Shown one piece after another: positions 16,291-45,077 of a DNA stretch of 54,920 nt (its first letter is position 1; each line of letters begins with the position of its first letter). Both the position numbers and the translations under genes were made by a program. The DNA is from a virus (Duplodnaviria > Caudoviricetes), in IMG/VR virus record IMGVR_UViG_3300013005_000046, positions 1 to 54,920 of that record. One strand, written 5' to 3'. Below the pieces are notes generated by a model. The model did no database searches. It saw only the letters and a program-made list of their open reading frames with translations, and had not been told where the DNA came from.

Positions 16291-16337
16291 AAATGTCGGT
16301 GGGTTATGCTAGGTTGGAACTAACGAAAGGAAATAAA

Positions 16338-17640: not shown

Positions 17641-17642
17641 AA

Positions 17643-19085: not shown

Positions 19086-19091
19086 TCCGCC

Positions 19092-19119
19092 TCTGCTGGG
19101 TATCAGATAAAACTGCCCA
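19092..19119 (+). ncRNA. Compact H-type pseudoknot motif, copy 1
   Basis: UCUG-CU-GGGUA-U-CAGA-UAAAAC-UGCCC. Confidence 0.6.
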
Positions 19120-19194
19120 ACCCTCACAAATGTCGTATGCTAATGCTACAATGATAAAGCAATAAACCCAATCAAGAAAAGGAAGAAACAAACT

Positions 19195-19638
19195 ATGGCA
19201 AGAACCCTGTCAGTAAAAATCCCAGTCGCAAAACTAATCGCAGATGTAGAGCAGTCTATTGCTAAGATAGATGTTGCTATTGCTGAGTATGCTGAAAAGC
19301 GTAAGCAGTATGAAGCAGAAAGCAAGCAGTATGACCTAGACATTGTTGCTCACGCTATCAAAGCACTATCAGACCCAAGTAATGTTGGAACAGAACACGG
19401 CTCATTAGTTCGTGTGTCAAGAGGATACAACGGAAACATTTCTGTTGATTTTGATGTTGAGGCACTTGGACTACCAGCCAAGCCAGTAGAGCCAGCAAGA
19501 CCAAATGAGAAAACTTATTTTGGTCGTGAGTATGCCACACGCAAAGAAGTCTTAGAGCGTAATCTTCGTATTCTAAAGATGACAACCCAAGAGGAAGTTT
19601 CGGCAAGTTCTTACTCTGCTGTTATTGACCTTATCTAA
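19195..19638 (+). CDS. Hypothetical coiled-coil protein
   Basis: ORF with RBS behind a TGTCG promoter. Confidence 0.8.
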   Translation: MARTLSVKIPVAKLIADVEQSIAKIDVAIAEYAEKRKQYEAESKQYDLDIVAHAIKALSDPSNVGTEHGSLVRVSRGYNGNISVDFDVEALGLPAKPVEPARPNEKTYFGREYATRKEVLERNLRILKMTTQEEVSASSYSAVIDLI

Positions 19639-19680
19639 ACTTAGGGAACAAGCCTTGCTTTGACAAGGAAAACGCCCGAA

Positions 19681-19708
19681 GCAACCTGAGCAAGTTGTGA
19701 AACTGCTT
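19681..19708 (+). ncRNA. Compact pseudoknot motif, copy 2
   Basis: CAAC-CU-GAGCA-A-GUUG-UGAAAC-UGCUU. Confidence 0.6.
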
Positions 19709-19857
19709 CCCCTTCCCCCTCTAAAGCTGAAGATCGTAAGATCACAAATACTGCGGGGGACTCAAAGGGGGGCGCACCTTATAACAGATAGATAACATCT
19801 TTAAGAAAAGCTTTAAGAACCCTTGTAAATGTCGGTGGGTACCTGTAAAATATAGAC

Positions 19858-19998
19858 ATGACAAAAAACCAGATTATAGATGAACAAGCAGAAGAAATCC
19901 GTGAGGCCTTGGCTGACTACTATGCTAACCCAGAGGAGTACACACTCGAAGACTGGGAAGAAATCTTTCAGGATAGGGACCCATTCGAATTCCTATAA
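19858..19998 (+). CDS. 46-aa highly acidic protein
   Basis: Leaderless; ...EEIREALADYYANPEEYTLEDWEEIFQDRDPFEFL. Confidence 0.65.
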   Translation: MTKNQIIDEQAEEIREALADYYANPEEYTLEDWEEIFQDRDPFEFL

Positions 19999-20046
19999 TG
20001 TCGGTGGGTCATGGTAGAATTCAAAAAAGAAATGAAAGGAAAACAA

Positions 20047-20247
20047 ATGTCTTATGACACAATAAGAAACGTTGGCTACGTATCGTATGACGGAAACTAT
20101 GGAGCGGAAGCGGACTTGCTAATGTTTGATAGTAATGCACTTACCTTGCAGCAGTGGGAAACCCTAGGTGAGCTAGGCGATAACTCCAGGTATGAGTATG
20201 TTGAAGCAGTATTCAACAACAAGGACCTAACTGAGTGGGAGGGCTAA
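20047..20247 (+). CDS. Hypothetical protein
   Basis: GAAAGGA RBS. Confidence 0.7.
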   Translation: MSYDTIRNVGYVSYDGNYGAEADLLMFDSNALTLQQWETLGELGDNSRYEYVEAVFNNKDLTEWEG

Positions 20248-20585
20248 TGTTGGATACTCTAGATACTTATCTAATCGATGAGTTCACTGATGAAGCTAAA
20301 GGTATTGCATTCGACACATGTCACAAAATTTATATTCTCATGGATAACGAACAGGTTGACCTTATGCGTGAGTATGGTTATGGTGATGCAAATGACCCAG
20401 ACAGTCTACTGACGTCGTACCAGCTGACACCAAGAGAGATGAGCAACAAGGTTGTTGAGTGGTTCCATGGCTCGTGTGGCCTAAGATTTATCAGTGCCGT
20501 TTATTCTGATGAGCGAGGTTTTGTAGACGTCGTCAGTCAGTTTGAAGGCAATGGATATGACGAAGATGAGGATGAAGACTTGTAG
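20247..20585 (+). CDS. Acidic hypothetical protein
   Basis: GGAGG RBS; FDTCHKIY..W...SCGLRFI. Confidence 0.75.
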   Translation: MLDTLDTYLIDEFTDEAKGIAFDTCHKIYILMDNEQVDLMREYGYGDANDPDSLLTSYQLTPREMSNKVVEWFHGSCGLRFISAVYSDERGFVDVVSQFEGNGYDEDEDEDL

Positions 20586-20619
20586 TGCATTCCCTTACTT
20601 CCTTTCTGGAATGTACTAC

Positions 20620-20647
20620 CGTCCTGGCCATGACGTAAATCTGGCCA
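20620..20647 (+). ncRNA. Compact pseudoknot motif, copy 3 (preceded by a 12-bp hairpin at 20582-20619)
   Basis: CGUC-CU-GGCCA-U-GACG-UAAAUC-UGGCC. Confidence 0.6.
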
Positions 20648-20791
20648 CCTTCAATTTGCGCCCCGTCGGGCGTGTCGGATCCATTTACGAAGGCTATTAA
20701 GAATGCCCCAAAATAAACCCAGTCTTGACAATGTCGGTGGTTGGGTGTAAAATAAGACTATAATAAACAACCCCTAAAGAAAGTAGAAAAC

Positions 20792-21805
20792 ATGGCACAT
20801 TTGCTAGAATCACAAAACGGAGAAACCGCATTTGCTTCATTCAGACAGCCAGCTTGGCATGGTCTAGGCGAAGTATTCACTGAGGAAGTATCCACAGCAG
20901 AAATGCTAAAGAAAGCTAAACTAAACAATTGGGATGTTCGCTTGGAAGACATCGAGATTCCTAATCAGTTTAGTTCCGACAAGAATTATTCTTTTGTCGT
21001 TAGAGATAACCCGTTTACCTTAGGCAACAAGGATGTTCTTGGTGTTGTTGGTGAGCGTTATGTTCCTCTCCAGAACGAGGACTTGTTTGATTTCGCAGAC
21101 AACCTACTAGACAATGGTGGTCGTTGGGAAACAGCAGGTTCAATCAAGGGCGGTAGAGTTGTATTCGGTGCTCTTGCTCTTGAGCGTGAAACAGTTCTTG
21201 ACAAGGACGGCGTTGCTGACAAGATAAACACTTATCTTCTTGTAAACACATCTCATGACGGGTCTATTGCTATTCAGGCAAGTATCACACCAGTTCGTGT
21301 TGTTTGTGCTAACACACTAAACCTTGCTCTTGGTAATCGTGGTCGTGGTGGTTCAGTAAAGCAGTCATTCAAGATTAGACACACACAGACTGCTCAGGGT
21401 AAGGTTGCTGTTGCTCGTGAGGCTCTTGGTCTTGCTAATGCTTACATGGATGAGTTCGACAAAATGGCAAGTGCTATGATTGAAACTGAAATTACTAAGG
21501 CACAGTTTGACAAGATTGTAAACTTGGCTTATCCAATGCCAAAGGATGACGCTAAGAAAGTTTCAATCACCAAACACGCTAACAAGATTGACCTCATCAA
21601 CGACATCTATGTTGGTGATTTCAATAACACAATTAGCGGAACAGCTTGGGGAGCATTGAACGCTCTAACCGAAAGACTAGACTGGCACAGAGCAGGTCGC
21701 AAGGGACAGACTGAAACAATTTTGTCTGGTGCTTCTGGTTTTGACCCAGTCATCAACGCAGAGAAGAATCGCTTGATGAAAATTGTTCAGAGTGTAATGG
21801 CATAA
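20792..21805 (+). CDS. DUF932 / phage-plasmid LGT_TIGR03299 family protein
   Basis: PAWHGLG, WETAGSIKGG, NTSHDGS, TPVRVVCANTL and IRHT motifs. Confidence 0.9.
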   Translation: MAHLLESQNGETAFASFRQPAWHGLGEVFTEEVSTAEMLKKAKLNNWDVRLEDIEIPNQFSSDKNYSFVVRDNPFTLGNKDVLGVVGERYVPLQNEDLFDFADNLLDNGGRWETAGSIKGGRVVFGALALERETVLDKDGVADKINTYLLVNTSHDGSIAIQASITPVRVVCANTLNLALGNRGRGGSVKQSFKIRHTQTAQGKVAVAREALGLANAYMDEFDKMASAMIETEITKAQFDKIVNLAYPMPKDDAKKVSITKHANKIDLINDIYVGDFNNTISGTAWGALNALTERLDWHRAGRKGQTETILSGASGFDPVINAEKNRLMKIVQSVMA

Positions 21806-21812
21806 CCCAAAA

Positions 21813-21838
21813 CTCCTAGGCATGAGAATAAACTGCCT
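21813..21838 (+). ncRNA. Compact pseudoknot motif, copy 4
   Basis: CUC-CU-AGGCA-U-GAG-AAUAAAC-UGCCU. Confidence 0.6.
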
Positions 21839-21979
21839 CCAATTTCGGGGCGCAATCTAATAATAACCTAGTTATCTATCTAAAATTCTTTAAGAAGATC
21901 CTAAAATTTTTGCCGAAATCTCTTGACTTTTGTCGGTGGTTAGCCTTATACTTATAACAACAAACAGAAAGGAACCCAA

Positions 21980-22477
21980 ATGGGAACCAGAAACCTAACA
22001 GTAGTAAAGAATCTAGAAGGCACTACAAAGATTGCTCTATACGGACAATGGGATGGCTATCCTAGCTATTCAGGTGTTGAAGCCCTAAAGTTTCTAAGAG
22101 ATAAAGTAAATAGGGATAACCTATTGGTAGAACTACAGCAAGTAGAGTTTATTAGCGAGGAAGAATCAGAAGCCCTTTGGGAAACCTTTGAGCATGATGA
22201 CAATGACCCAACCAAAGCACAAACAGCTATGCCAGGACTAACCAGGGATACTGGTATCGGTATTCTAGAGATAGTTGCTAATACTATGAATCCTATCAAG
22301 ATGATTGACAATAGTGAGTTTAGGAACGATACCCTATTTTGTGAGGGTGTCTATGAGGTAGACTTTAGCACTAACAAGTTTATTACTACCTATGCTGACA
22401 AGGTTGTTGAGTATGACCTTGATACCCTGCCAAGTGATGAAGAATACCTAGCCCAATGGGAAACTGCTAACGCATAA
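21980..22477 (+). CDS. Conserved phage protein (MGTR..YxQWDGYP family)
   Basis: Motif and GAAAGGA RBS. Confidence 0.8.
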   Translation: MGTRNLTVVKNLEGTTKIALYGQWDGYPSYSGVEALKFLRDKVNRDNLLVELQQVEFISEEESEALWETFEHDDNDPTKAQTAMPGLTRDTGIGILEIVANTMNPIKMIDNSEFRNDTLFCEGVYEVDFSTNKFITTYADKVVEYDLDTLPSDEEYLAQWETANA

Positions 22478-22491
22478 GAAGGAATAGAAAA

Positions 22492-22644
22492 ATGACAATG
22501 AATGAACTAATGAGCAAAATCCTAGAAATCCTTCCTAACGCTGTATTTGGCGAAGAGGACAATGGAGAAATCCTAATCGCAACAGGATTTGTAGAACGCA
22601 AAGACGGAACCCTAGCAGAATTGGATGACAGCGATGAACTTTGA
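22492..22644 (+). CDS. 50-aa acidic protein
   Basis: Hand translation; AAGGA RBS. Confidence 0.6.
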   Translation: MTMNELMSKILEILPNAVFGEEDNGEILIATGFVERKDGTLAELDDSDEL

Positions 22645-22822
22645 TAATTTAGATACAAAACATGTAACAGGAGACCTAGCAACAGACGTTCAGTTCATCA
22701 AAGATAATCTTAGTATTGATGACGCTGAGTTCTTTAGACAGGCTATGGCCAACATAATGTCGGAGGGTACTGCTAGAATAGAATCCCTAACCAATGAAGA
22801 GATAGATAGGTTCTTTGAATGA
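22634..22822 (+). CDS. Hypothetical protein
   Basis: ORF track; operon packing. Confidence 0.6.
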   Translation: MNFDNLDTKHVTGDLATDVQFIKDNLSIDDAEFFRQAMANIMSEGTARIESLTNEEIDRFFE

Positions 22823-23013
22823 TGAGTCTAACAAGTAATGACCTAAAAACTTGGCAGGTAGAGTATTCGGCTGCTTACTGGGTAGAAGCAACAAGTGAAG
22901 AAGAAGCTATTGATAAGGCTATGGAAGAACACTCCGAATTTCCTGACGGTAGTTGGGAAGCTATGATTGACCCCTATGATAGCAACAACTTCAATACCCT
23001 AGGAGAAAAGTAG
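22819..23013 (+). CDS. Small acidic protein with VEAxSxEEA motif (DpnD/PcfM-like)
   Basis: WVEATSEEEAI. Confidence 0.65.
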   Translation: MMSLTSNDLKTWQVEYSAAYWVEATSEEEAIDKAMEEHSEFPDGSWEAMIDPYDSNNFNTLGEK

Positions 23014-23204
23014 TGCAGACTATCAGGATAACTATTGACTTAGACTATGACTTAGAGTCTCACTACAATAGCCCAGAGGAATACAAAAACCTATCTTTAG
23101 ACGCTATCGTAGATGACTTGGAAGATAATGTGTATGAGGATTTGTTAGACCTTATGCGTAATGATAGATTGAGATTTTGGTCAGAGACGAGGGTAATCGC
23201 CTGA
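23013..23204 (+). CDS. Acidic hypothetical protein
   Basis: AGGAG RBS; GTG start. Confidence 0.65.
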   Translation: MQTIRITIDLDYDLESHYNSPEEYKNLSLDAIVDDLEDNVYEDLLDLMRNDRLRFWSETRVIA

Positions 23205-23339
23205 CCTGGTCCCCCGAAAGGGGTGCGCCCACTATTATAACGATCTTGTTATCTAATAAAAAACCTTTACGAACTACTTGACTTTTTCCCCGAATTGTGA
23301 GATACTTGATTTATCAAACCCCAACCCTTAGGAGCTAAC

Positions 23340-23516
23340 GTGCCTACTTTCAAAATCCAAAGAGAATACACCAACTGGGAAGAAATTACAGTTGAAGCTG
23401 ATTCAAAAGAACATGCCCTAGAACTTGCAGATGATGATGACACATGGGACATGGCCTATGATGTAAACTCCTACAACTACACTGGAGAGACATGGGTAGG
23501 AGAAGCAGATGAGTAA
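23340..23516 (+). CDS. 58-aa acidic protein with VEADS motif
   Basis: AGGAG RBS; GTG start; hand translation. Confidence 0.65.
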   Translation: MPTFKIQREYTNWEEITVEADSKEHALELADDDDTWDMAYDVNSYNYTGETWVGEADE

Positions 23517-23618
23517 GAAATGTTTCCACTACAACTGGGGTGGATACTGTGCCCTTTGCGGTAAGCAACTATACAATAAAGGACTAGGCGTAGACCTATA
23601 CAAAGGAAAGAAAGTCTA

Positions 23619-24137
23619 ATGCACGTATTACAATACATAGCTGTTCAGGCAGATAGCAATGACGAAGCCTTTCGTACCGTCAAGGATACACTTGAATCCG
23701 AGCTAGGCAATAACGAGTATTCAACTAATGCTTGGTTTGACTGGTTCGTAGTTGGTGGCGGTAGGTTTGTAGAAGGAAACCCATATGAAGAATCTACTAA
23801 TAGTATAATCTCCTATGACGAAGCACCAGCTGAGTATCTGGCTATGGTTGATAGTCTTATTAGTAATCGTATGGATGAGTTTGAGGCCTACCGTAAACAC
23901 TATAACGAAAAGGGTGTTGACATTGAAGCTAAGTTAGATAACTATAGAGGTGTTATGAACTATGACTTTGAGCTATACCCCTTGAAAAAAATGATTGACA
24001 TGATTCAGGGTGAGTGGGACATGAACTCATACTTTTATGACATGCACCATTCCAGCACTAACCCTGACCACATGCACAAGAGCCTTGACTTAGGCAACAA
24101 GAACTGGTATGCTGTACCTGTAGACTTTCACTTCTAA
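23619..24137 (+). CDS. Conserved phage protein (DWxxxGGR ... VDxH family)
   Basis: MH start, WFDWFVVGGGRF, VPVDFHF end. Confidence 0.8.
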   Translation: MHVLQYIAVQADSNDEAFRTVKDTLESELGNNEYSTNAWFDWFVVGGGRFVEGNPYEESTNSIISYDEAPAEYLAMVDSLISNRMDEFEAYRKHYNEKGVDIEAKLDNYRGVMNYDFELYPLKKMIDMIQGEWDMNSYFYDMHHSSTNPDHMHKSLDLGNKNWYAVPVDFHF

Positions 24138-24149
24138 AAAGGAAACCCA

Positions 24150-24545
24150 ATGACAGAAACCCCATACACAGAATACCAAGGTTGGCATGAGTGGGCAGAA
24201 AAGTTCAAGCCTATAAAAAACCACCTTGTCAATGACCCTGACCAGCAAATGTTTGAGACCTATGGTGAAGAGGTTGAGTTTGTATCTAATTATGATAACA
24301 AGTATGTTTGGACTTGGCTTCAAGGAGACATGTCAGACCTTGTTTGTGCTGGCTACCACTATGTAAATAGATTGGGATACTACATTTCCGAGGTACCTTG
24401 GGAAAACGAAGATGACTATGCTTTACTATCAGTTGAGGTAGAGTGTGAATGCTATAAAGAGGAAGGCTATGAAGATGGCGAATACGGAAGAGCTGACTGT
24501 GAGGAGTGTGAAGGTAATGGACACATCACTAAGTACATCGACTAA
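24150..24545 (+). CDS. Hypothetical protein with C-terminal Zn ribbon
   Basis: FETYGEE..GYHYVNRLGY; CEC..CEECEG. Confidence 0.8.
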   Translation: MTETPYTEYQGWHEWAEKFKPIKNHLVNDPDQQMFETYGEEVEFVSNYDNKYVWTWLQGDMSDLVCAGYHYVNRLGYYISEVPWENEDDYALLSVEVECECYKEEGYEDGEYGRADCEECEGNGHITKYID

Positions 24546-24912
24546 ACCAGTATCACAAGGTTACGGTAGATTCAAGAGGAATGCAAATGCAGATAGAACT
24601 AAGTTTATCTATGACCTAAACATCTATCAGCTGGAGCAGTTGGACGCAGATGGGGAGTACAGATTCTTTGGACCATGGTACATCCATGTCTATGAGTATA
24701 CTGGCCAGACGACGGAAGAGGTATCAGTTCCGATCGAGCTCACACCTGAAGAGCAAGAGTTTCTAATCGATAACGACCCCTACTTTGATAATGAGGTAGA
24801 CACGTGGTATGGATTAGATGGCTTTATATTTGAGAAGTGGGAGGTCATCTCAGATAGACTAAAGTTTATCTTTGAAATGCTTCCTAAATATAAAGATGAA
24901 GTTCTATTCTAG
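24517..24912 (+). CDS. Acidic hypothetical protein
   Basis: ORF track; start adjusted. Confidence 0.65.
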   Translation: MDTSLSTSTKPVSQGYGRFKRNANADRTKFIYDLNIYQLEQLDADGEYRFFGPWYIHVYEYTGQTTEEVSVPIELTPEEQEFLIDNDPYFDNEVDTWYGLDGFIFEKWEVISDRLKFIFEMLPKYKDEVLF

Positions 24913-24915
24913 GAC

Positions 24916-24944
24916 TTGACAAATACAACTGAATACTGTACAAT
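24916..24944 (+). promoter_or_regulatory. Canonical primary-sigma promoter TTGACA-17-TACAAT
   Basis: Direct consensus match. Confidence 0.75.
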
Positions 24945-24993
24945 GGAATAGCTACAAAAACCAATAATAACCAACAACCCTTAGGAGAACCAA

Positions 24994-25152
24994 ATGGCAA
25001 AGAAGAGCAAAGCAAAAACCTATCCATACCTAGAGACTTGGGACACACGCTATGGTATGAGTCAGCGTGTAGTCCTACGCAAGGATGGTAAGTTTGTAGA
25101 TAACATCTCGCTTACCGCACTGAAGCAAGGGGTTAGGGTTTCCTCTCGCTAA
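24994..25152 (+). CDS. 52-aa basic protein
   Basis: AGGAG RBS; MAKKSKAKTYPYLETWDTRYG... Confidence 0.7.
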   Translation: MAKKSKAKTYPYLETWDTRYGMSQRVVLRKDGKFVDNISLTALKQGVRVSSR

Positions 25153-25227
25153 TCAGTAAATGAGAAAAAGGGGGGCACAGGTTCAGGCTTGTGTCCCTCT
25201 CCCATTTCTGGTATAATGAAGGAAACT

Positions 25228-25437
25228 ATGAGAAGAATAAAAACAGACGAAGAAAAAGCGGCAATCAAATTAGCAACAATCGTTTCTGATGTAAGACTAG
25301 ACTTAGATGAAGTCGGAGTTTATCTTGGAAGATACGCACCAACAATTTCATACAATCGTTTATTGCTTATAGCAGAATCAGCAGAGTTCGAGAAGGAGAA
25401 CATAGATGTCAGACACGCCCACGAACCACTTTTCTAG
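25228..25437 (+). CDS. Hypothetical protein
   Basis: TGGTATAAT upstream; ORF track. Confidence 0.7.
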   Translation: MRRIKTDEEKAAIKLATIVSDVRLDLDEVGVYLGRYAPTISYNRLLLIAESAEFEKENIDVRHAHEPLF

Positions 25438-25699
25438 ACAATGTGAGATACTGGCTGACCTTTGGCTAAATCATAAAGGTGATGAGCAGTTAGCAGATTT
25501 CATTGAATACAATGACATTGGCTTGCCACTTGCTTATGCTTTTGCTGAGGACTTGGCAAAGCCAACAGAGTTAGCAACTAAATACATTACCGAAACTTAT
25601 TCTTTGTTGGTTGAGGCATTAGGTCTTACTGATTCAGAAGAGTGGGAATCTATTGACGAAATGTTTGATAACTCTCCAAATTATGAATCAGATTTCTAA
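25406..25699 (+). CDS. Hypothetical protein
   Basis: DFIEYNDIGLPLAY motif. Confidence 0.75.
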   Translation: MSDTPTNHFSRQCEILADLWLNHKGDEQLADFIEYNDIGLPLAYAFAEDLAKPTELATKYITETYSLLVEALGLTDSEEWESIDEMFDNSPNYESDF

Positions 25700-25734
25700 T
25701 AGATAAAGCTGGCATTTAGGAGATAACATCTCCA

Positions 25735-25807
25735 ACCCCCATAGCCCAATGGCAGAGGCGATAGACTTAAAATCTATTCAGTGTTGGTTCGAGTCCAACT
25801 GGGGGTA
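25735..25807 (+). tRNA. tRNA-Leu(UAA) with short variable loop
   Basis: Cloverleaf ACCCCCA/TGGGGGT; anticodon arm ATAGA-CTTAAAA-TCTAT; GGTTCGAGTCC. Confidence 0.9.
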
Positions 25808-25859
25808 CGTTTCGGGGCGCACATATGTTTGTCCAAATGTCAAATACCAAATACCAAAT

Positions 25860-26680: not shown

Positions 26681-26936
26681 CAAAGTGGTATCATGGTATC
26701 AATTTTTTGGGGGTATTTGGATCAACGGATAGGCGGCTATGGCTTATTCAGATACAATAAAATAACAGTACAAACGCCAAAGAAGGCTATCAGGCATATC
26801 ACTATTTGCTCAGCTGTCATGTATCCAGTATATGGGTGTTTTCAAAACCACCATGTATTCCTACTAGGGGTTATATCTTATACTAGGGATTACGATGCTT
26901 CCTTGACATCCCCCGAAAATTTGATACAATTGATAG

Positions 26937-27407
26937 ATGCATCCTAAATGTGGAACCAAAGCTGGTCATGATGATCATAGGCGTAAATACAGGGATGCCT
27001 TTTGCGAGCCATGCATTGAGGCTATGAGAGCCTACTGGATAGAGTATAGGAAGCGTCCAGAAAAGAAAGAAAGAATTAAGCATTACAATCGGACCAATAG
27101 GAACATTAGGTCTGGCACAAGATTTAAGAATTTAATCAAACAAGGATTTGATATACAAAGAGACTTTTTCTCTGCTTCTACAGTTATCTTTACTTATGGA
27201 ACTATTTGTCATTTGTGTAATGAGGAAGTTGATCTAAATGCCCCTAGGGGTGTAGGACAGCCTGGATGGGAAAGAGGTTTGCATATTGACCATGTCATTC
27301 CATTGTCAAGAGGAGGACACGATATCCTGGATAATGTTAGACCTTCTCATGGCCAATGTAATATAAAAAAACATAACAAAATGGACTATATCCATTTGTC
27401 TTATTGA
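26937..27407 (+). CDS. HNH endonuclease
   Basis: CHLC..IDHVIPLSRGG..N...HGQCN..K; N-terminal CGT..CEPC. Confidence 0.9.
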   Translation: MHPKCGTKAGHDDHRRKYRDAFCEPCIEAMRAYWIEYRKRPEKKERIKHYNRTNRNIRSGTRFKNLIKQGFDIQRDFFSASTVIFTYGTICHLCNEEVDLNAPRGVGQPGWERGLHIDHVIPLSRGGHDILDNVRPSHGQCNIKKHNKMDYIHLSY

Positions 27408-27586
27408 CTAACTGATCCTGGAGCTAAAGGTCTATACTGTTTACGTGCCCTATTGAAAGACTTATAGCAGTCAGAATGGACTGTGACATCTATCCTATAT
27501 TTCTTAGTCTTGTGTGACCGTCTATAGGTGGTTAATGGCTCTACTAGTTCTTTATTACAATACCAACAAGGATTACGATCCATCAT
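27401..27586 (-). CDS. Small hypothetical protein
   Basis: CWYC..HSDC; start uncertain. Confidence 0.5.
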   Translation of the reverse strand: MMDRNPCWYCNKELVEPLTTYRRSHKTKKYRIDVTVHSDCYKSFNRARKQYRPLAPGSVSQ

Positions 27587-27795
27587 TTGATACCCCCAGA
27601 TTTTCCCCAGGTTACCTTGAGCCAAATACGCTCATGCAGGTAGTACAATACAAAGTTAATTACGTTAGATACTACTGTCAAAGACGCAGCAAAGGTTAGA
27701 CTGCCTGTCATGGCATATCCTATTATGAATGTGCTGACAACAGCTATGACCCTCCAGGTGAGTGACTTAGCTAAAGACCTTTTCTTAGTAGCCAT
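27583..27795 (-). CDS. DUF2061 membrane protein
   Basis: RSLAKSLTWR..YYLHERIW. Confidence 0.85.
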   Translation of the reverse strand: MATKKRSLAKSLTWRVIAVVSTFIIGYAMTGSLTFAASLTVVSNVINFVLYYLHERIWLKVTWGKSGGIK

Positions 27796-28003
27796 CAGTC
27801 TCTACCCAATCTTTGGCATAGCCATAGCATACACCACCTGTGGTCATATCCCAAACAGCTATTTCTCCTAGCTGGAGATACTTGACCTCATTTGGTGATG
27901 TGATATGGAACATCCATTTGCCTTCTGGAATGGCAAGCTCAATGTCTGAGTTGTTCATTCTGTTGATGTGGGTGTCTCGTTTGGCTGTTACAAACTGAGC
28001 CAC
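27785..28003 (-). CDS. Hypothetical protein
   Basis: ORF within the operon. Confidence 0.6.
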   Translation of the reverse strand: MAQFVTAKRDTHINRMNNSDIELAIPEGKWMFHITSPNEVKYLQLGEIAVWDMTTGGVCYGYAKDWVETDGY

Positions 28004-28005
28004 GA

Positions 28006-28203
28006 TTACTTGATCTTTACGAATTTAGCCCAGATACGCTCATGAATGAAGTATGCCAGAGCTTCCCAAGCGATATAGACAAGTGCTCCTAGAGTAGCGT
28101 ATTCCCACTCTCCTGTGATTACAAAGATCACTCCTGCTATGATAACAAGGTGTACGAATTCCCAGCTAAGGGTCTTGGTTAAACTTCTTTTTGTGCTTTC
28201 CAT
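28006..28203 (-). CDS. DUF2061 membrane protein
   Basis: RSLTKTLSW..FIHERIW. Confidence 0.8.
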   Translation of the reverse strand: MESTKRSLTKTLSWEFVHLVIIAGVIFVITGEWEYATLGALVYIAWEALAYFIHERIWAKFVKIK

Positions 28204-28336
28204 TTTTACTCTTTCCTGTTATATCAATTATACGGTATGCTAGGATGTTTGTCAATAGCATTACGGAGTAATGTAGTAAGACATTAACCTTCTATTTACC
28301 GCCGAACTTTTCGCCCGAACTTTATATATTATTTTT

Positions 28337-28864
28337 TTAACCTGGATACTTGTCAAACCACTTGGTAGTCGAGCTGCCTATGCCATTCCAAGCAGACCAG
28401 TTTTTTCCGCCGTCTGACATCTGGAATGCAATCCTTGCATTTACCCATGGGTCAAACAGGTCTTTGTAACTATCTAATCCGTATTGCTCAAGCCTTGCTG
28501 GGCCCAAGCTCCCAATCATATTGATCTGGAATAGTCCATGAGAGTTGTCCCCTGTCTTAGGGTTATCATTATGAGACCTTGGTCTGCCAGTCGATTCCTT
28601 CATAGCTACTGCCCAGGCCTCTTTTAGATTGCTGCCACGAAACCCAACTTCATACAAGATAGCCTTAAGATCTTTAGGAGATAGTTGCTCATTCTTCTTG
28701 TATGTTTGCTTTATGTTTACCTTTGGCTTTTCTAAAGCAAGAAACCTCTGAGTTTCTGCCTTATCGATAGATGCTGTGTAAGCACTATTACTAGGCTGGT
28801 TAAGTATTGACAAGCCAACAAGTGCCAACGAGCATGCGAATGTAACTGTTAAAGCTTTATTCAT
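28337..28864 (-). CDS. Secreted lytic transglycosylase (SLT/lysozyme-like)
   Basis: Signal peptide; ES..GLFQIN..N..A..W..W. Confidence 0.85.
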   Translation of the reverse strand: MNKALTVTFACSLALVGLSILNQPSNSAYTASIDKAETQRFLALEKPKVNIKQTYKKNEQLSPKDLKAILYEVGFRGSNLKEAWAVAMKESTGRPRSHNDNPKTGDNSHGLFQINMIGSLGPARLEQYGLDSYKDLFDPWVNARIAFQMSDGGKNWSAWNGIGSSTTKWFDKYPG

Positions 28865-28867
28865 GGC

Positions 28868-29626
28868 TTAGTTATTTGTCTCAATTATTCGAGTATAGGT
28901 GACTTCGCTATTACCATTAGCTTTAGACCAGTTCTTAATAGAACGTATTTCAGTCCTGTCTCCTGGCTTACCACCTGCGTGTATCATCTCATCAGGCCCT
29001 ACATAGATTCCAATATGATAGGCACTGCCATAGCTTTGGAAGTTGAAAGAGACTAGGTCTCCAATCTTAGGGTTGGTAACAATTGCTCCAGATTCTCTCT
29101 GAACAGAAGCTCTGTGCTCAAGATCAACCCCAAGACGAGCATATGTCCACTTAACAAGTCCTGAGCAATCCCAAGCGTCTGGTGTGGATCCACTAAAGAC
29201 CCAAGGGGTTTTTCCAATTTGCTTTTTAACCAAGATTAAGGTTTCATTTAATTTCTTGGTGTCACTGGCAACTTTTTCCAGTCTGGCAATCTCTGCCTCA
29301 AGCTCATCTTGCTTTCTTTCAGCATCGGACTTGAGCTTATCCTTTGCTGCCTTCTCCTGAGCCATCCAATCAACGGAACCGATAAGCGGTGCGTCTGAGG
29401 CCAGGACTGGCCCAGTTGCTAGCTCCAAGGCCTTCACTGGCCCTGAGAAGATAACTTCTTTTGTTACTGGAGAATCAATTACTGGTGTTGGCTTTGTTAC
29501 TTGTGTTACTGGTTGTTTCATGTTCGATGACTCAGCAGACTCTATCATAGCTCCAAAAGCTACTCCAGTGCCACTAGTCAGTAGCAGTGCAATCATACCA
29601 ATTGCGATGAACCTTTTTCTTTTCAT
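28868..29626 (-). CDS. Secreted NlpC/P60 peptidoglycan endopeptidase
   Basis: Signal peptide; coiled coil; DCSGLV, HIGIY, MIHA. Confidence 0.9.
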   Translation of the reverse strand: MKRKRFIAIGMIALLLTSGTGVAFGAMIESAESSNMKQPVTQVTKPTPVIDSPVTKEVIFSGPVKALELATGPVLASDAPLIGSVDWMAQEKAAKDKLKSDAERKQDELEAEIARLEKVASDTKKLNETLILVKKQIGKTPWVFSGSTPDAWDCSGLVKWTYARLGVDLEHRASVQRESGAIVTNPKIGDLVSFNFQSYGSAYHIGIYVGPDEMIHAGGKPGDRTEIRSIKNWSKANGNSEVTYTRIIETNN

Positions 29627-29774
29627 TTGGCGACCTACCTTTCCTTGGTAGTTAGTACTCGGTCGTTGAGCGTTAGCGGGTGGTTTCCCTATATTAAGTT
29701 ATAAACCCTTGAAATAGATACATCCATCTCAAAGGCGTACTACTATTTTACCACAAATTAAGACAAAATACACA

Positions 29775-30029
29775 TTACTTAGTTTTATTTCTTGTTTTTA
29801 GCTTTAAGCCAGTAGCCTTTTTTAGCCAAGGCTTGTCAGAATATCTAGCCCACTCATACACAAAAATGCAGGCTGCAATAAGCAATCCAAGGGAAGCTGA
29901 TTGCACAATGTAGTATGGAGTTGGGTCAATTAGATAGGTTTCCCAAGGGAAGCTATAAGCCACTACTGGGAATGCAATGATGTTTCCAAATACTACAGCA
30001 ACTACAATACTCTTATAAACGTTTTTCAA
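29775..30029 (-). CDS. Two-TM membrane protein
   Basis: AGGAG RBS; hydrophobic segments. Confidence 0.7.
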   Translation of the reverse strand: MKNVYKSIVVAVVFGNIIAFPVVAYSFPWETYLIDPTPYYIVQSASLGLLIAACIFVYEWARYSDKPWLKKATGLKLKTRNKTK

Positions 30030-30233
30030 TTGTTCTCCTTGTTAATTAAATCCTATGTATGATTATACAGGTGGTGGTACAGAATGTCAAGTGTTGCACC
30101 TTCTATTAGGTGTTGCACCTACTTACCGCCGAATTTTAATCTATTAATGATTCTTCTGCGATTTCGACGAACTCTATATCTTTTAGATCTTCGTCAGTAA
30201 GTCCCTCAGCGTGAAGGCTTGCCATTTTAGCCA

Positions 30234-30443
30234 TTAGTAGCTCCTATCATTTGGGTCGTACCAGTTATATATCCATCCTTGTGGTGTAAAACATTTTTTA
30301 CAAATCTGCATTAGCATTGTGCCTTTGTCTAAAGCATTTACAGCATCTTCAAAGTCATGCTGATTATCATTGCAGGGATTCCTCATTGCTGCACTAATTA
30401 TCTTAAGTCTTTCAGAAAACTCTTCATCGCTTAGTCTAGCCAT
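30234..30443 (-). CDS. Hypothetical protein
   Basis: ORF; GGGAG RBS. Confidence 0.6.
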   Translation of the reverse strand: MARLSDEEFSERLKIISAAMRNPCNDNQHDFEDAVNALDKGTMLMQICKKCFTPQGWIYNWYDPNDRSY

Positions 30444-30651
30444 AGATAATCTCCCTTATTTTGGCAAATACAGTTTCTTGATATAGCGGTGTTCTTGTTG
30501 CATGGGATTGATCTTCTAGCCTCTGGATGCCCTGCAAAATTCTCTCACGTTCATCTAAGGTTCCAGCCTGATAGCCAAGATTATAGTCGTCATAGTCATC
30601 CAAGAAGCTGTCATCATCAAAGTCTTCGTCCAAAAAGTATTCTTTGCTCAT
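30436..30651 (-). CDS. Hypothetical protein
   Basis: GYQAG..ERERI motif; leaderless. Confidence 0.65.
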   Translation of the reverse strand: MSKEYFLDEDFDDDSFLDDYDDYNLGYQAGTLDERERILQGIQRLEDQSHATRTPLYQETVFAKIREIIYG

Positions 30652-30689
30652 AGTACGATTATACAGGAAACCCAGGATAAAGTCAACGA

Positions 30690-30848
30690 CTAATCTTCGG
30701 TCAAGTAGTCCTTAAATATCTTTAAAATCTTGGCGGTATACTTCTGATATTCAACATCCATAACAGTATTATCGCTATCAACCTTATACAGCTTGATATC
30801 TTTTACTAACTCAAAGAGGATATCATCAACTTCTTTGCCTAGGTCCAT
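30690..30848 (-). CDS. 52-aa hypothetical protein
   Basis: TGGTATACT 5 nt before ATG; MDLGKEVDDILFELVK... Confidence 0.55.
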   Translation of the reverse strand: MDLGKEVDDILFELVKDIKLYKVDSDNTVMDVEYQKYTAKILKIFKDYLTED

Positions 30849-31027
30849 ACCTAAGTATACCAGATTCATAAAGCATTGGTAAAATTAAGTGTGATCTATA
30901 AGTGTAATTGTGGCAAGATACATGTTATAGGGATAGAGCTATATTTTGAGATAATTAAGTATAAAGAGTACTGTTATTGTCCTATAATTAACTTGACATC
31001 CCCCTGAAATTCTGGTACCATTTTCAT

Positions 31028-31444
31028 ATGAATATTACTAATGTGAATTTTCAAGCAGAGTCAAAACATTCTGGAGATATTTTTGAGTCCCAGGTTCTTG
31101 AAGACCTTGACCGCTTTGGGCAAAAAGATATTAAGAAGAATGTAGTAGTTAAAGATGCTGGCTGTGAAGTTGACTTTGCTTATGACTTTCATGGGGTTCA
31201 GGTTTACGTTGAAGCAAAAGGTGGACTTCAGGGTGAGGGCAAGCGTCCTGGGGCCAAGAGAACTGACAATGTAAAGAAAGCAATTGCCAATGCTGCACTT
31301 ATTAAGTCTCTCTATCCAGAAACCCAATATATAGTTTATTTCTCAGATCTGCCAAAGCATGGCTCTTCTTCTCACAAGATGCTAAGGACTGCTGTTCGTG
31401 CAGGTTTTATAGATGGCGTAAGATATCTTATTGACATCAACTAA
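31028..31444 (+). CDS. PD-(D/E)XK nuclease-fold protein
   Basis: G..FE..EVDF..VEAKGG..RTDNVKKA. Confidence 0.75.
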   Translation: MNITNVNFQAESKHSGDIFESQVLEDLDRFGQKDIKKNVVVKDAGCEVDFAYDFHGVQVYVEAKGGLQGEGKRPGAKRTDNVKKAIANAALIKSLYPETQYIVYFSDLPKHGSSSHKMLRTAVRAGFIDGVRYLIDIN

Positions 31445-31450
31445 TTATTT

Positions 31451-32032
31451 TTAGAGTTTGTGTAACTCATCATAGCTAAGCCAGATTGGCAGGGTATACC
31501 TTACCTCTGGCGATTCCGAAACTCCGTGGTAGCCAGTAGTTTTAGTTGGAAAAAATACGAGGTCACCCTCTTCTGGTTTATAAGAATATCCTGAGTCAAT
31601 AAACGATAACTCTCCACCAGACTGCAAGGTGTTCAGATAAACGATGCAACTGTATTCAAGATGAAGGTTTACTCCATGATCAGTGTCATTGTGTGCTGGA
31701 ATCATTCCTCCAGGGTATTGTTTAGAGAGCCAAAAAGAGCATACATAAAGGCTTTTATCTAAAGACAAAGTTTCTTTAACCCCTTTTTCTAGTCTTTGAA
31801 ATAATGTTCGAACAGTGGCTTCACTGTTTGCTAAAAGGGCTAAGTTTTCTTGGGCTACAACGTTTCCCTGGATATCGTTTTTGGGATTTCCAAAAGCAAG
31901 ACTAATTCTTAACCAATCCTGCCAAGAGAAGAATTTATCAATATGATTTGTTTCGTAATCATCAATTAGTTTTTTAAAAAACAATATTTCATCACTAGAG
32001 ATGAAGTTTTTTATGATCCTGACATCATCCAT
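31451..32032 (-). CDS. 2OG-Fe(II) oxygenase (prolyl-4-hydroxylase-like)
   Basis: HND..YLN..GGEL.F..P..GD..F..HGV..RY. Confidence 0.9.
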   Translation of the reverse strand: MDDVRIIKNFISSDEILFFKKLIDDYETNHIDKFFSWQDWLRISLAFGNPKNDIQGNVVAQENLALLANSEATVRTLFQRLEKGVKETLSLDKSLYVCSFWLSKQYPGGMIPAHNDTDHGVNLHLEYSCIVYLNTLQSGGELSFIDSGYSYKPEEGDLVFFPTKTTGYHGVSESPEVRYTLPIWLSYDELHKL

Positions 32033-32035
32033 AAT

Positions 32036-33193
32036 TTACACAAGTTTAACAGATGATGTATAATCTTTACCAAAATCAGAGAACAGGGCCTTGTCTGCTT
32101 CACGCTGAGCTATTCTGCGTGACCATGAATAACCTGCGTCTCCACCCCATGCTAGCCACATAATGTATCCATTAGATGGGTTGGCTTGGTTTCCCCAGTC
32201 CTTGCCCTTCTTGTCTACCTCATGACGTGAGAAGTAAGAATACATACGCTTTACTGTGCTTAGCGAAAGTGTCTCTCCATTAGCCAGCTGTCTAGCTCTA
32301 GTCCATCCAACTGCAGTTCCTGCTCCTGTTGCTTTGCCATCTTCTTTGAACTTGATAGCACGACGAGCAGCACTCCTAGCCCCAGCAGGAGGGCTGTAAC
32401 CTTCAGCTTTGTCCATGTATTCATCATCTTCATCCTCATAATCTTCTAAACTAATGTTTGGCATATCAATTCGTGTTACATCAGATCTTAATGCACCAAT
32501 TGAGTATGCTGTGTAATAGTAAACACCATCATCTTCTTCAAGAATTCTAACCGCTACCGCTGGATTTTCAGGAGTTGACTCTACGGAATAAGGGTTTCCA
32601 GGCTGACCATATGTTCCACCTTCAATCATAATGTGTTCAACTTGACCAACTATTACACCTTCAGTTGTCATTGCCACTACAAAGTCGCCTTCGACTAATG
32701 TAGCATCTGCCTTTGATACTGGAATGCAGTTTGGAACCATTCTTCCATTGTCGCCTGGCTTCATGCCTCTTTGAGTATAGCCATCCCAGCATGGAGCAGC
32801 TTTTTCGTCTGACTTAGTTCCCATCGATGTTCCAGAGTTAGTTGTAGATATTGCTCCAGAAGGGTCTCCACCAGCACCACCAGTAGTAGTCTTTGGTTTT
32901 TTCTTAGGATCTTTTAATACGGAAGGCTTCTTAGAAGCTGGTTCTGGCTGCCCAATAGCAGACCCCATACCATCTTTATCTGTAGCTGATTTTATTGCCG
33001 TTCCTGGCCATTCTTCTGGGTCTTTGATGCCAACACCCTTATCTGGAATATTTCCTTCAGATTGGTTGATTGCATAGATTTGGTTAGCGGCTTCTTCAGC
33101 TGACTTGTGGCAACCCATTACGGTTCCATCGTCTTTAACGGCAGGGTATCCCGAACAACCGTATGAATCTTTTTCTCCAACATGATATGGCAT
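32036..33193 (-). CDS. Multi-domain phage protein
   Basis: GCH..A..Q..A, CWDGY..MVPNC and RARQLANGETLS..VKRM.SYF.RH..W.AWGG modules. Confidence 0.75.
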   Translation of the reverse strand: MPYHVGEKDSYGCSGYPAVKDDGTVMGCHKSAEEAANQIYAINQSEGNIPDKGVGIKDPEEWPGTAIKSATDKDGMGSAIGQPEPASKKPSVLKDPKKKPKTTTGGAGGDPSGAISTTNSGTSMGTKSDEKAAPCWDGYTQRGMKPGDNGRMVPNCIPVSKADATLVEGDFVVAMTTEGVIVGQVEHIMIEGGTYGQPGNPYSVESTPENPAVAVRILEEDDGVYYYTAYSIGALRSDVTRIDMPNISLEDYEDEDDEYMDKAEGYSPPAGARSAARRAIKFKEDGKATGAGTAVGWTRARQLANGETLSLSTVKRMYSYFSRHEVDKKGKDWGNQANPSNGYIMWLAWGGDAGYSWSRRIAQREADKALFSDFGKDYTSSVKLV

Positions 33194-33216
33194 AACTAAA
33201 TTATACCATGAATGTT

Positions 33217-33244
33217 AGGCCTTTTTTCAACATGCCCAGGTTGT
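33217..33244 (-). ncRNA. Compact pseudoknot motif, copy 5 (degenerate)
   Basis: CAAC-CU-GGGCA-U-GUUG-AAAAAA-GGCCU downstream of hsp20. Confidence 0.45.
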
Positions 33245-45076: not shown

Positions 45077-45077
45077 G

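Follow-up and report, generated by a model that had tools for sequence, protein, structure and literature searches.

A compact 27-nt RNA pseudoknot class at reading-frame ends in phages and bacteria

The window analyzed here, a stretch of 54,920 nucleotides from a Caudoviricetes virus (IMG/VR record IMGVR_UViG_3300013005_000046), carries five copies of a compact RNA pseudoknot (PK). The PK is a previously uncatalogued and very widespread 27-nt H-type pseudoknot class, a new RNA family whose fold type is known. A first-pass annotation of the window had noticed the copies; the observation is real, and its extent was underestimated. The best-supported role, to which we give a probability of roughly 0.42, is that of a compact element at the end of the reading frame, which would stay folded during translation and block 3'-to-5' decay.

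Copies in the phage window

All five copies aligned without gaps as one 27-nt unit, P1(4)-CU-P2(5)-N-P1'(4)-UAAAAC-P2'(5). The copies and an accessory hairpin are located as follows:

19092..19118, plus strand: PK copy 1, UCUG-CU-GGGUA-U-CAGA-UAAAAC-UGCCC, 34.6 bits, 6 nt past the TAA of a 50-codon ORF (18933-19085)
19682..19708, plus strand: PK copy 2, CAAC-CU-GAGCA-A-GUUG-UGAAAC-UGCUU, 32.4 bits, 43 nt past the TAA of ORF 19195-19638
20582..20619, plus strand: accessory hairpin adjoining copy 3 on its 5' side, with a stem of 12 bp and a pyrimidine loop of 14 nt (CCUUACUUCCUUUC), -15.8 kcal/mol, z -5.84
20620..20646, plus strand: PK copy 3, CGUC-CU-GGCCA-U-GACG-UAAAUC-UGGCC, 32.4 bits, 34 nt past the TAG of ORF 20235-20585
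21812..21838, plus strand: PK copy 4, ACUC-CU-AGGCA-U-GAGA-AUAAAC-UGCCU, 33.6 bits, 6 nt past the TAA of the DUF932 gene (20792-21805)
33217..33243, minus strand: PK copy 5, CAAC-CU-GGGCA-U-GUUG-AAAAAA-GGCCU, 33.9 bits, 57 nt past the stop of the Hsp20 gene (33301-33690, minus strand)

When the window was searched with a covariance model, the five copies scored 32-35 bits and the next-best match 17 bits. A loose scan with the bare pseudoknot architecture produced 46 matches on the plus strand and 43 on the minus strand; this architecture alone is not beyond chance, whereas the shared sequence and structure together are. The P1 and P2 pairings given in the first-pass annotation were correct. 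The starts it gave for copies 2 and 4 (19681 and 21813) belong to real copies but reflect readings of P1 with five and three base pairs, respectively. All five copies lie on the coding strand after a stop codon, as had been reported, with the spacers listed above.

The outermost P1 position of copy 4 is A/A, and the location of this copy behind the DUF932 gene is kept in relatives. Copy 5 is a variant in which four of the five P2 positions are paired, A11 faces G23, and columns 22-23 are AG, not CU; the same type of variant tail is present also in loci L084, L105 and L071. The hairpin upstream of copy 3 lies outside the core PK motif. Its loop is complementary to the GAAAGGAAG-type ribosome-binding sites of the phage, and hairpins of this type are kept upstream of CGUCC-class copies in relatives. 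There is also a small hairpin between the TAA of ORF 19195-19638 and copy 2. The copies are dispersed at gene ends in a multi-promoter region of the phage.

Fold, conservation and distribution

The covariation at the family level is strong, and the PK is a compact RNA pseudoknot. Model R1 encoded only P1, and P2 was left un-encoded. The search with R1 gave 269 matches in 80 related viral loci, and among the 86 distinct sequences the un-encoded P2 paired in 99.8% of the cells, with compensatory changes on both sides at four of the five pairs. Overall pairing in this set was 99.1%, compared with 74.4% in shuffles and 28-42.5% with the partners slid, and in the independent set A3 (109 distinct sequences) it was 97.3% vs 78.5%. 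For P1, pattern-anchored 27-mers with free P1 columns (n = 108) provided a test without model bias: pairs 2-15 and 3-14 were each present in 108/108, the former with four pair types and a shuffle mean of 43.9, while pair 1-16 was present in 84/108. The covariation of both stems proposed in the first-pass annotation was confirmed in these sets. As G-U and U-G wobbles are present (e.g. U-G at columns 10-24 in 18/86) and all 269 matches lie on the gene strand, the element is a sense-strand RNA. The isolated helices are weak, -1.3 to -2.9 kcal/mol for P1 and -2.5 to -5.8 kcal/mol for P2, which argues for cooperative folding of the PK.

The CU loop (C5, U6), called invariant in the earlier annotation, was so in all 86 distinct relatives. 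Among the same sequences A11, A19 and A20 were each present in 86/86, A21, C22 and U23 in 85/86, and G24 in 84/86, C22 being unpaired at the helical junction. The single-nucleotide L2 (column 12) is not conserved (U 60, A 20, C 6), and the consensus of L3 is UAAAAC. Two of the three frames are closed within the consensus PK, by a UGA at columns 6-8 and a UAA at columns 17-19. PMC5737381 takes three properties together as the sign of a biochemically sophisticated RNA: occurrence in multiple phyla, a fold with a pseudoknot or a multistem junction, and several nucleotides at ≥97% conservation. The PK occurs in many phyla, forms a pseudoknot and reaches ≥97% at nine or more positions. The near-invariant C4-G13, C5, U6, A11-U23, G24, A19-A21 and C22 most likely form base triples; by analogy, C5 and U6 may occupy the P2 major groove, with the adenines placed in the P1 minor groove. 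Such triples, together with stacking of P1 (4 bp) on P2 (5 bp), would make a very compact and mechanically tough knot.

In the Rfam search, covering positions 18500-22500 of the window and eight PK-bearing genome loci, the PK matched no family, in agreement with the first-pass remark that the family was not recognised. Viral stretches with the core sequence number at least 120, and contigs of bacterial assemblies with it, from many phyla (phyla taken from record titles), at least 118; cultured phages of Mycobacterium, Synechococcus, Streptococcus and Paracoccus carry it as well. It occurs in ordinary bacterial operons, too.

Two other RNAs share some of these features. The T4/T2 gene 32 pseudoknot is a single-copy element confined to one gene's 5' leader, where it nucleates the binding of that gene's own product; like the PK, it is a small H-type pseudoknot of phage mRNA outside Rfam, but the two are not known to resemble each other in sequence. 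This autoregulatory pseudoknot is mentioned in PMC10690425. The DUF2800 RNA (RF02960) is likewise phage- or prophage-associated and a candidate cis-regulatory RNA, and in locus L246 it starts 1 nt past the PK; in loci L280, L284, L291, L304 and L311, too, this sequence comes after the PK. Its Rfam model, however, excludes the PK, and the great majority of PK loci lack the DUF2800 RNA.

Placement and the preferred role

The longest upstream open frame was on the PK strand in 5/5, 145/148 and 106/118 cases, and the upstream genes vary (DUF932, Hsp20, small unknown ORFs and others). The closest PK start is 5 nt past the stop codon, a hard edge, and the mode is 5-6 nt: the first base of the stop was at -8 (5-nt spacer) in 20, 23 and 15 contexts of three sets, at -7 in 1, 1 and 0, and at -6 to +5 in 0, 0 and 2. 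This edge coincides with what we take to be the edge of the terminating ribosome, and since the first base pair is never less than 5 nt from the stop, such a ribosome need not melt the PK. In 38/128 and 39/119 contexts (30-33% of the phage copies) over 25 nt separate the stop and the PK, which makes the PK independent of contact with the ribosome.

A tRNA gene on the same strand begins 3-19 nt past the PK in 31/150, 15/127 and 4/124 cases, with five tRNA types represented, and the next Shine-Dalgarno sequence and start codon are found 20-39 nt past it in 29/84 and 14/61 cases. Because these features follow so closely, the PK is co-transcribed with them and is no terminator. Phage contexts rarely have a canonical terminator after the PK (5/129 and 3/122), and in cellular genomes a terminator-like hairpin is present about 5-25 nt past the PK in 31/118 cases. 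Of 124 cellular copies, 41 use the UGA within the PK as the stop codon of a small ORF. The flanks are unstructured and G-poor; position +1 is A in 63%, and ACC occupies +1..+3 in 24/123 and 21/120 contexts compared with a 1.5% background (about 12-fold enrichment). The first-pass placement in 3' UTRs was right in that the PK follows stop codons, but too narrow, the PK being often intercistronic, upstream of a tRNA, or itself carrying the stop. Contigs from metatranscriptomes (RNA libraries) carry no information on RNA ends.

Among the roles suggested in the first-pass annotation, an exonuclease-blocking mRNA end fits this placement best. Transcribed within the mRNA on the sense strand just past the end of the reading frame, the PK would delimit the upstream message at its 3' end. 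Where the transcript ends beyond the PK or is cut there, as by RNase P at a neighbouring tRNA, 3'-to-5' exonucleases would trim it back and stall at the PK, sparing the coding region upstream together with its stop codon. In effect the PK would be a 27-nt stand-in for the stabilising hairpins of mRNA 3' ends.

Known mRNA stabilisers include REP elements and the hairpins that RNase III cleavage leaves in T7 early mRNAs; the MALAT1 and PAN transcripts have triple-helix ends, made by RNase P cleavage beside a tRNA-like structure. As with these, the PK is a sense-strand structure just past reading frames and repeated at gene boundaries, and the PK-tRNA pairs resemble MALAT1 in that a putative triplex element directly precedes an RNase P site. 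The PK differs from them in being a 27-nt pseudoknot with a sequence kept across phyla, not a species-specific hairpin, and a stabilising role for it is presumed.

The scarcity of alternative 3' hairpins in phage contexts and the unstructured flanks speak for a 3'-cap role, and other structured elements nearby in long promoter-bearing spacers speak against it. In cellular genomes the terminator-like hairpin that follows in 31/118 cases seems to make the PK superfluous there as a 3' cap, and in the 41 cellular copies with the stop inside the PK ribosomes must melt it. About ten nucleotides are near-invariant across many phyla, more than a passive roadblock obviously needs, and by the criterion of PMC5737381 this conservation suggests a more specific biochemical task.

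Alternative roles

It is unlikely that the PK is instead directed at the ribosome, sitting at the mRNA-channel mouth of the terminating ribosome and acting on translation, whether by slowing or tuning termination, by preventing read-through or post-termination sliding into the next cistron, or by insulating cistrons from the ribosome traffic of their neighbours. The exact mode of 5-6 nt with its hard edge would put P1 near +12, counted from the P site, and thus beside the ribosomal helicase site, which is reportedly at +11 (Takyar et al. 2005); frameshift and read-through stimulators have the same spacer geometry, the small-ORF class has its stop codon within the PK, and many copies sit between two cistrons. 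The 5-nt edge is, however, equally explained by avoidance of a clash, and the family sequence is unchanged in the copies more than 25 nt from the stop. Furthermore, the frame of the PK relative to the ORF shows no strong preference (72/62/38), and the next start codon lies at varying distances.

We also doubt that the PK is a specific recognition module, either a small-molecule aptamer or a binding or processing site of a universally conserved factor. No consistent downstream or neighbouring gene was found among the loci inspected, and the location is tied to the upstream stop and not to an expression platform, although the PK has the properties that PMC5737381 ties to sophisticated function, an invariant unpaired C22 at the helical junction and the fold type of preQ1-I aptamers. 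PMC11625349 describes those aptamers as H-type pseudoknots of about 30 nt in which L1 is a short pyrimidine loop, L3 is A-rich and occupies the minor groove of P1, and P1 and P2 stack coaxially; a specificity cytosine (UC or AC) sits immediately 5' of the P1 3' strand. The PK has similar size, loops and coaxial stacking but lacks the cytosine (column 12, as above), and its L2 is 1 nt instead of 4-6 nt. With a non-conserved L2 of this length, a pocket of the preQ1-I type is absent. The preQ1-I model RF00522 gave no match at the gathering score or at E ≤ 10 in positions 18500-22500, nor at E ≤ 1 in the eight PK-bearing genome loci, and the PK follows stops of unrelated genes while preQ1-I lies in 5' UTRs of queuosine genes; membership was rejected, although the H-type fold with an A-rich 3' loop is shared. 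In a speculative variant, the G7-C27 terminal pair and a 3' A-C-C might mimic a tRNA acceptor end read by tRNA-end enzymes, as the ACC enrichment could indicate, but only 9-20% of the copies have ACC. Tertiary triples alone can account for the invariant bases. As phages of unrelated hosts share the PK, any partner would have to be universal.

A processing signal or small self-cleaving ribozyme, cutting polycistronic phage transcripts at gene boundaries, is very improbable. The repeated intergenic sense-strand placement in a multi-promoter region, the highly conserved core and the proximity to tRNA genes, to which some phage ribozymes also lie close, are compatible with it; to our knowledge, however, 27 nt is far below the size of any natural self-cleaving class, Rfam gave no ribozyme match, and apart from the A at +1 no conserved flanking nucleotides for a cleavage site were found.

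Hardly any credence can be given to recoding, by stop-codon read-through or frameshifting, to give C-terminally extended proteins. Luteovirus-type -1 frameshift knots such as that of BWYV have a stem 1 of 4-5 bp, a C-containing 2-nt L1, one junction base that is extruded and an L3 of 6-7 nt rich in A, and are placed 5-8 nt downstream of the codon being read. The PK is a similar minimal H-type knot with a 2-nt L1, a single junction base and an A-rich L3, and its spacer of 5-9 nt corresponds to this classic viral geometry. It differs in having a stop codon upstream, where those knots have a slippery heptamer, in being hosted by bacteria and phages, and in the lack of both an overlapping extended frame and a frame preference. 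What follows it is non-coding or belongs to the signals of another gene (a tRNA within 3-19 nt, promoters or a Shine-Dalgarno sequence), the PK itself stops two of the three frames, and the upstream stops are mostly the strong TAA (115/147 and 83/114).

A transcription terminator or a type III antitoxin decoy, both named in the first-pass annotation and in keeping with a gene-end position and with the small pseudoknots of such antitoxins, is barely credible: the PK lacks a U-tract, is followed closely by tRNA genes and start codons and in bacteria often by a separate canonical terminator (31/118), and occurs as single dispersed copies, not in the tandem arrays beside an endoribonuclease toxin gene that characterise ToxI-like antitoxins, also in ordinary bacterial operons, with no match to an Rfam antitoxin family and no recognised toxin found among the neighbouring genes of PK loci.

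Beyond the preferred 3'-boundary role, a broader proposal, which we regard as rather improbable, is that the PK is a near-universal functional RNA class, a minimal triplex pseudoknot recognised at reading-frame ends by a conserved machine or metabolite and not a passive roadblock. It could then mimic a tRNA acceptor end for the enzymes that read tRNA 3' ends, or be a new aptamer built on the invariant junction of C22, U6 and A21. If true, this would represent an unrecognised layer of post-transcriptional punctuation common to phages, mobile elements and bacteria of many phyla.

Copies, fold and conservation of the pseudoknot

All five copies of the compact pseudoknot named in the first-pass annotation were present and aligned without gaps as one 27-nt unit (PK; columns 1–27), with the layout P1(4)-CU-P2(5)-N-P1'(4)-L3(6)-P2'(5). 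The window, a complete contig of 54,920 bp, has a G+C content of 40% and is phage-like, with many small ORFs, five tRNA genes, and DUF932 and Hsp20 genes. The tRNA genes are situated at 45004–45405 and 48077–48148 (-) and at 25735–25807 (+), and none of them adjoins a PK copy.

PK copies in the window
19092–19118, + strand, copy 1
19682–19708, + strand, copy 2
20620–20646, + strand, copy 3
21812–21838, + strand, copy 4
33217–33243, - strand, copy 5

The architecture alone was at chance level, as a pairing-only scan of the window gave 46 plus-strand and 43 minus-strand matches. Loose scans (pairing only, or P1 plus an A-rich stretch) produced dozens of chance matches in the window and were rejected as evidence. 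Under R1, a covariance model made from the five copies and encoding P1 alone, the copies scored 32–35 bits and the next-best match in the window 17 bits. Shared sequence together with structure is significant, the bare architecture is not.

A DUF932 protein query retrieved 80 related IMG/VR loci (70–96% identity), in which R1 found 269 matches at E ≤ 1, all 269 on the gene strand. In the best 150 of the 269 matches (86 distinct sequences) the full PK was paired in 99.1% of the cells compared with 74.4% in shuffles, the loci being phylogenetically related and the counts not independent events; with slid partners, 28–42.5% of the cells of these best 150 matches were paired. The proposed covariation of P2 was borne out, 99.8% of its cells being paired though P2 was absent from the encoding of R1, and both-side changes were found at four of the five P2 pairs (e.g. 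columns 8–26, A-U 49 and G-C 37). An unbiased test of P1 was based on 108 distinct 27-mers fetched by sequence pattern with the outer P1 columns left free. Also here the proposed covariation held: pair 2–15 was formed in 108/108 (GC 42, AT 26, CG 21, TA 19; shuffles with mean 43.9 and maximum 59), pair 3–14 in 108/108 and pair 1–16 in 84/108. A second alignment, independent of DUF932, was 97.3% paired vs 78.5% when shuffled; in pattern-anchored sets a part of P2 is fixed by construction.

The sense-strand placement noted for the window copies proved general, with the PK co-oriented with genes in 5/5, 145/148 and 106/118 cases. Together with wobble pairs that pair on the sense strand only, this orientation points to RNA rather than duplex DNA. 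Single-helix energies ranged from -1.3 to -2.9 kcal/mol in P1 and from -2.5 to -5.8 kcal/mol in P2, and since each helix alone is marginal, the fold must be cooperative.

The consensus was NNUC-CU-GRGYA-U-GANN-UAAAAC-UGCYC. Positions C5, U6, A11, A19 and A20 were present in 86/86 distinct sequences, the first two upholding the invariance ascribed to the CU loop; A21, C22 and U23 were found in 85/86, G24 in 84/86, and C4 and G13 in 81/86. Variable positions were column 12, the junction base, and those at the distal helix ends. Compared with solved structures of compact H-type knots (see also PMC11625349), this conservation would fit major-groove triples of C5 on G24-Y10 and U6 on A11-U23, and A-minor contacts of L3 (UAAAAC) may be compatible with it as well.

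Distribution and relation to known RNAs

The commonest core sequence was found in at least 120 viral stretches and a 20-base version in at least 118 bacterial-assembly contigs, the chance expectation for the latter being about one match in 596 Gb (4^20 vs 1.2×10^12 positions). Titles among the matches listed included Saccharibacteria, Aminicenantes, Clostridia, Actinomycetes, Deltaproteobacteria/Thermodesulfobacteriota, Cyanobacteria, Bacteroidota, Spirochaetota and others, and the PK was present in phages of Actinobacteria, Cyanobacteria, Firmicutes and Proteobacteria. Cultured phages matched by BLAST included Mycobacterium phage Labelle, Synechococcus phages S-EIVl and S-RIM4, Vibrio phages, Streptococcus Javan271 and Javan383, and Paracoccus phages ParKuw1 and ParMal1; partial matches to plasmids were left out of the distribution. 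In four whole records searched with R1 (Labelle, S-RIM4, Javan271 and ParKuw1) one copy each was detected, that of Labelle at 56441–56467, 6 nt after gene 85. Megablast of window positions 19000–22000 gave no matches to phage records, and tblastn with DUF932 recovered distant (<60%) actinophage homologues only.

Genes 5' of the PK included DUF932/phrog_1221 (17/74), Hsp20 (3) and Gp2.5-like SSB (2) in the pattern-anchored viral loci, and DUF7249 (7/47), DUF932, DUF3768, DUF2958, RadC and ANT in the cellular loci; the recurring ones we take to belong to the usual early or accessory complement of mobile elements. Two Saccharibacteria loci were found among the bacterial contigs. At the first (L202, L223, L230, L243, L253, L294) an ORF extends into the PK, with the UAA of L3 as its stop codon, and in the same six assemblies the GGGAGG Shine-Dalgarno (SD) sequence of the next gene follows about 10 nt after the PK, in a chromosomal and conserved setting. 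At the second (L204, L227, L241, L297, L301, L315) the PK is situated 7 nt after a DUF7249 gene.

No Rfam 15 family covered any of the copies, in agreement with the first impression of an unrecognized family. The nearest fold was the preQ1-I aptamer, the specificity cytosine of which, as defined in PMC11625349, is missing from the PK (C in 6/86). The preQ1-I covariance model gave no match to the PK and the gene context is also different. These three differences exclude the PK from preQ1-I membership. To our knowledge, few curated RNA families are equally small and widespread. The PK combines occurrence in multiple phyla, a pseudoknot and multiple nucleotides conserved at ≥97%, the features by which PMC5737381 delimits sophisticated RNAs. 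A description of the motif was not found in the literature searched, in which supplementary motif tables of hundreds to thousands of entries could contain it; nor do the accessible parts of PMC5737381, PMC10690425 and 10.64898/2026.09.22.753630 describe it, their supplementary tables being again a place where it could be found. The accessible part of the Patience phage paper has nothing on the PK locus. We regard the PK as a new RNA family whose structural type is known and whose placement is new.

Placement at reading-frame ends and neighbouring elements

The distance from stop codon to PK had a mode of 5–6 nt and a hard edge. According to mechanical ORF calls, the first base of the stop was at -8 (5-nt spacer) 20, 23 and 15 times, at -7 once, once and never, and between -6 and +5 never, never and twice among the distinct contexts of the DUF932-anchored viral, pattern-anchored viral and cellular sets, respectively. 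Window copies 1 and 4 have 6-nt spacers, and copies 2, 3 and 5 are more than 25 nt from the stop, likewise 38/128 and 39/119 of the copies elsewhere. The ribosome is said to open mRNA duplexes at +11 (work of Takyar, Hickerson and Noller in 2005). With the stop in the A site and a 5-nt spacer, the first P1 pair is at +12 from the P site, just past that point, so that termination does not require the ribosome to melt the knot. The UAA of L3 was without frame preference and was rejected as an in-frame second (back-up) stop.

A conserved sORF some 20 codons long, with the peptide M-K-R-F/Y-x-I/V-P-R-V-A/S-H-C-x-x-G-C-x-x-x-S, ends at the PK in 41/124 cellular copies, variation at third positions indicating that it is coding. 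Carriers were Aminicenantes, Deltaproteobacteria, Clostridia, Actinomycetes and others. The peptide matched no Pfam or NCBIfam family and no mention of it was found in the literature searched. Its stop is the UGA of PK columns 6–8 in most cases and one codon earlier in a few; as this stop is inside the PK, the knot has to be unwound by ribosomes here, and any model must allow for this. The sORF is usually at an operon end, with the upstream gene on the same strand and the downstream gene often convergent. A single pathway upstream of it was rejected, the upstream genes being heterogeneous.

Elements around the PK copies
16084, 16293, 16991, 18750, 19829, 19998, 20731 (e.g.), window, members of the promoter-like family
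20582–20619, + strand, 12-bp hairpin, -15.8 kcal/mol, z -5.84, begins inside a TAG stop
19709–19775, + strand, conserved element directly after copy 2, weakly supported fold, z -1.98
L035, L036, L044–L047, L050, L051, L054–L058, L060, L065, L066, L069, L076, L077, DUF932-PK-tRNA-Asp loci
L203, L206, L208, L211, L219 and others, sORF examples (41 PK copies in bacterial-assembly contigs L201–L318)

A same-strand tRNA gene (Asp, Arg, Ser, Glu, Asn) was located 3–19 nt downstream in 31/150, 15/127 and 4/124 copies, and the next SD and start codon 20–39 nt after the PK in 29/84 and 14/61; such short distances imply co-transcription of the PK with what follows and argue against a terminator. Other copies, those of the window included, precede promoter-bearing spacers. 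A canonical terminator-like hairpin followed the PK in 5/129 and 3/122 phage contexts and in 31/118 cellular ones. In many relatives the PK after the DUF932 gene is followed 3–19 nt on by a tRNA-Asp gene, around 5020–5110 of the respective loci; at the DUF932 end the window has a promoter-bearing spacer instead.

A promoter-like family, TTGACA - aATGTCGGTGG - TAAAAT, extends over window positions 15257–22766, mainly on the + strand. Its spacer decamer ATGTCGGTGG occurred 14 times in the window at ≤1 mismatch vs 1.16 expected, 12 of the 14 on the + strand at 15.5–22.8 kb ahead of small ORFs. The family marks a multi-promoter region, probably the early region. The PK itself was rejected by eye as a promoter, as UAAAAC does not end in the T expected of a -10 hexamer and has no -35 upstream.

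The 14-nt loop CCUUACUUCCUUUC of the hairpin at 20582–20619 is complementary to the GAAAGGAAG-type SD sequences of the phage, and the hairpin may be an anti-SD regulator. It is also found 5' of CGUCC-class copies (L001, L002, L003, L005, L008–L010, L013–L015). The element at 19709–19775 consists of a C-rich run, AAAGCUGAAG-GAUC-N4-GAUC-ACAAAUACUG and a G-rich run, with counterparts at L001:1854-, L005:2255- and L007:2278- and in L012–L014 and L018. In L246 the DUF2800 RNA (RF02960, 153 bits; 5051–5208, -) begins 1 nt past the 3' end of the PK, which is outside the Rfam model, and the sequence after the PK recurs in L280, L284, L291, L304 and L311. In prophage-like contigs of Firmicutes the PK and the DUF2800 RNA thus recur as a tandem pair.

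Possible functions

The preferred reading, held tentatively at a probability of about 0.4, is that the PK is a boundary element at the reading-frame end and a putative exonuclease block. The knot would remain folded during translation of the upstream ORF; the RNA would then end further on or be cleaved there, the most concrete case being RNase P at an adjoining tRNA, with a 3–19-nt tail left; and 3'-to-5' exonucleases would stall at the knot, so that the coding sequence would be preserved together with its stop codon. This reading fits the strand and position rules, the edge of no closer than 5 nt (for which contact is not required), the scarcity of other 3' hairpins in phage contexts, and the PK-tRNA pairs, which parallel the triple-helix and RNase P arrangement of MALAT1. 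It leaves unexplained the PK ahead of canonical terminators in bacteria and so many bases invariant across phyla.

A role directed at the ribosome is on the doubtful side. Similarly unlikely is a specific module binding a ligand or factor, including a mimic of the tRNA acceptor end. The flanks of the PK are G-poor, with A at +1 in 63% of the contexts and G almost missing at +1 to +3 in all sets. The top triplet at +1 to +3 in the phage sets was ACC (24/123 and 21/120; background about 1.5%), found also in 11/119 genome contexts; its 12-fold enrichment suggests acceptor-end mimicry, but it is present in only 9–20% of the copies. A processing site or ribozyme is improbable.

Small shares of the window were contained in 24 lake-water and metagenome RNA runs, and in four lake-water RNA libraries short assembled contigs matched 18900–19700 and 20785–21813 at ≥99% and a depth of about 2–7, which indicates close phage relatives in those libraries, DNA carry-over being possible. 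The contig ends near PKs (19112, 19676, 19691 and 21813) differed between studies, and one piece (19089–19239) spans copy 1.

Luteovirus-type frameshift knots have architecture and spacing in common with the PK, but the slippery site and extended frame are not common to both, and a recoding signal is very improbable. Hardly any weight is left for a terminator or a type III antitoxin decoy: the termination role suggested in the first-pass annotation fails on tRNA genes 3–19 nt or start codons 20–39 nt downstream, with which the PK is co-transcribed.

With its 27 nt and about nine near-invariant bases, the PK is a widespread motif absent from Rfam 15, and it flags an unannotated conserved gene for a 20-codon Cys/His peptide in many anaerobic bacteria. 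The hard 5-nt spacing is an in-genome readout of the downstream footprint of the ribosome at termination. Should the PK bind a factor or ligand, it would represent a new functional RNA class tied to reading-frame ends. A role as a 3' protective cap, if true, would explain stable messages of phage genes without terminator hairpins, and the PK would then also be a very compact part, independent of the host, for stabilizing or insulating the cistrons of synthetic operons.
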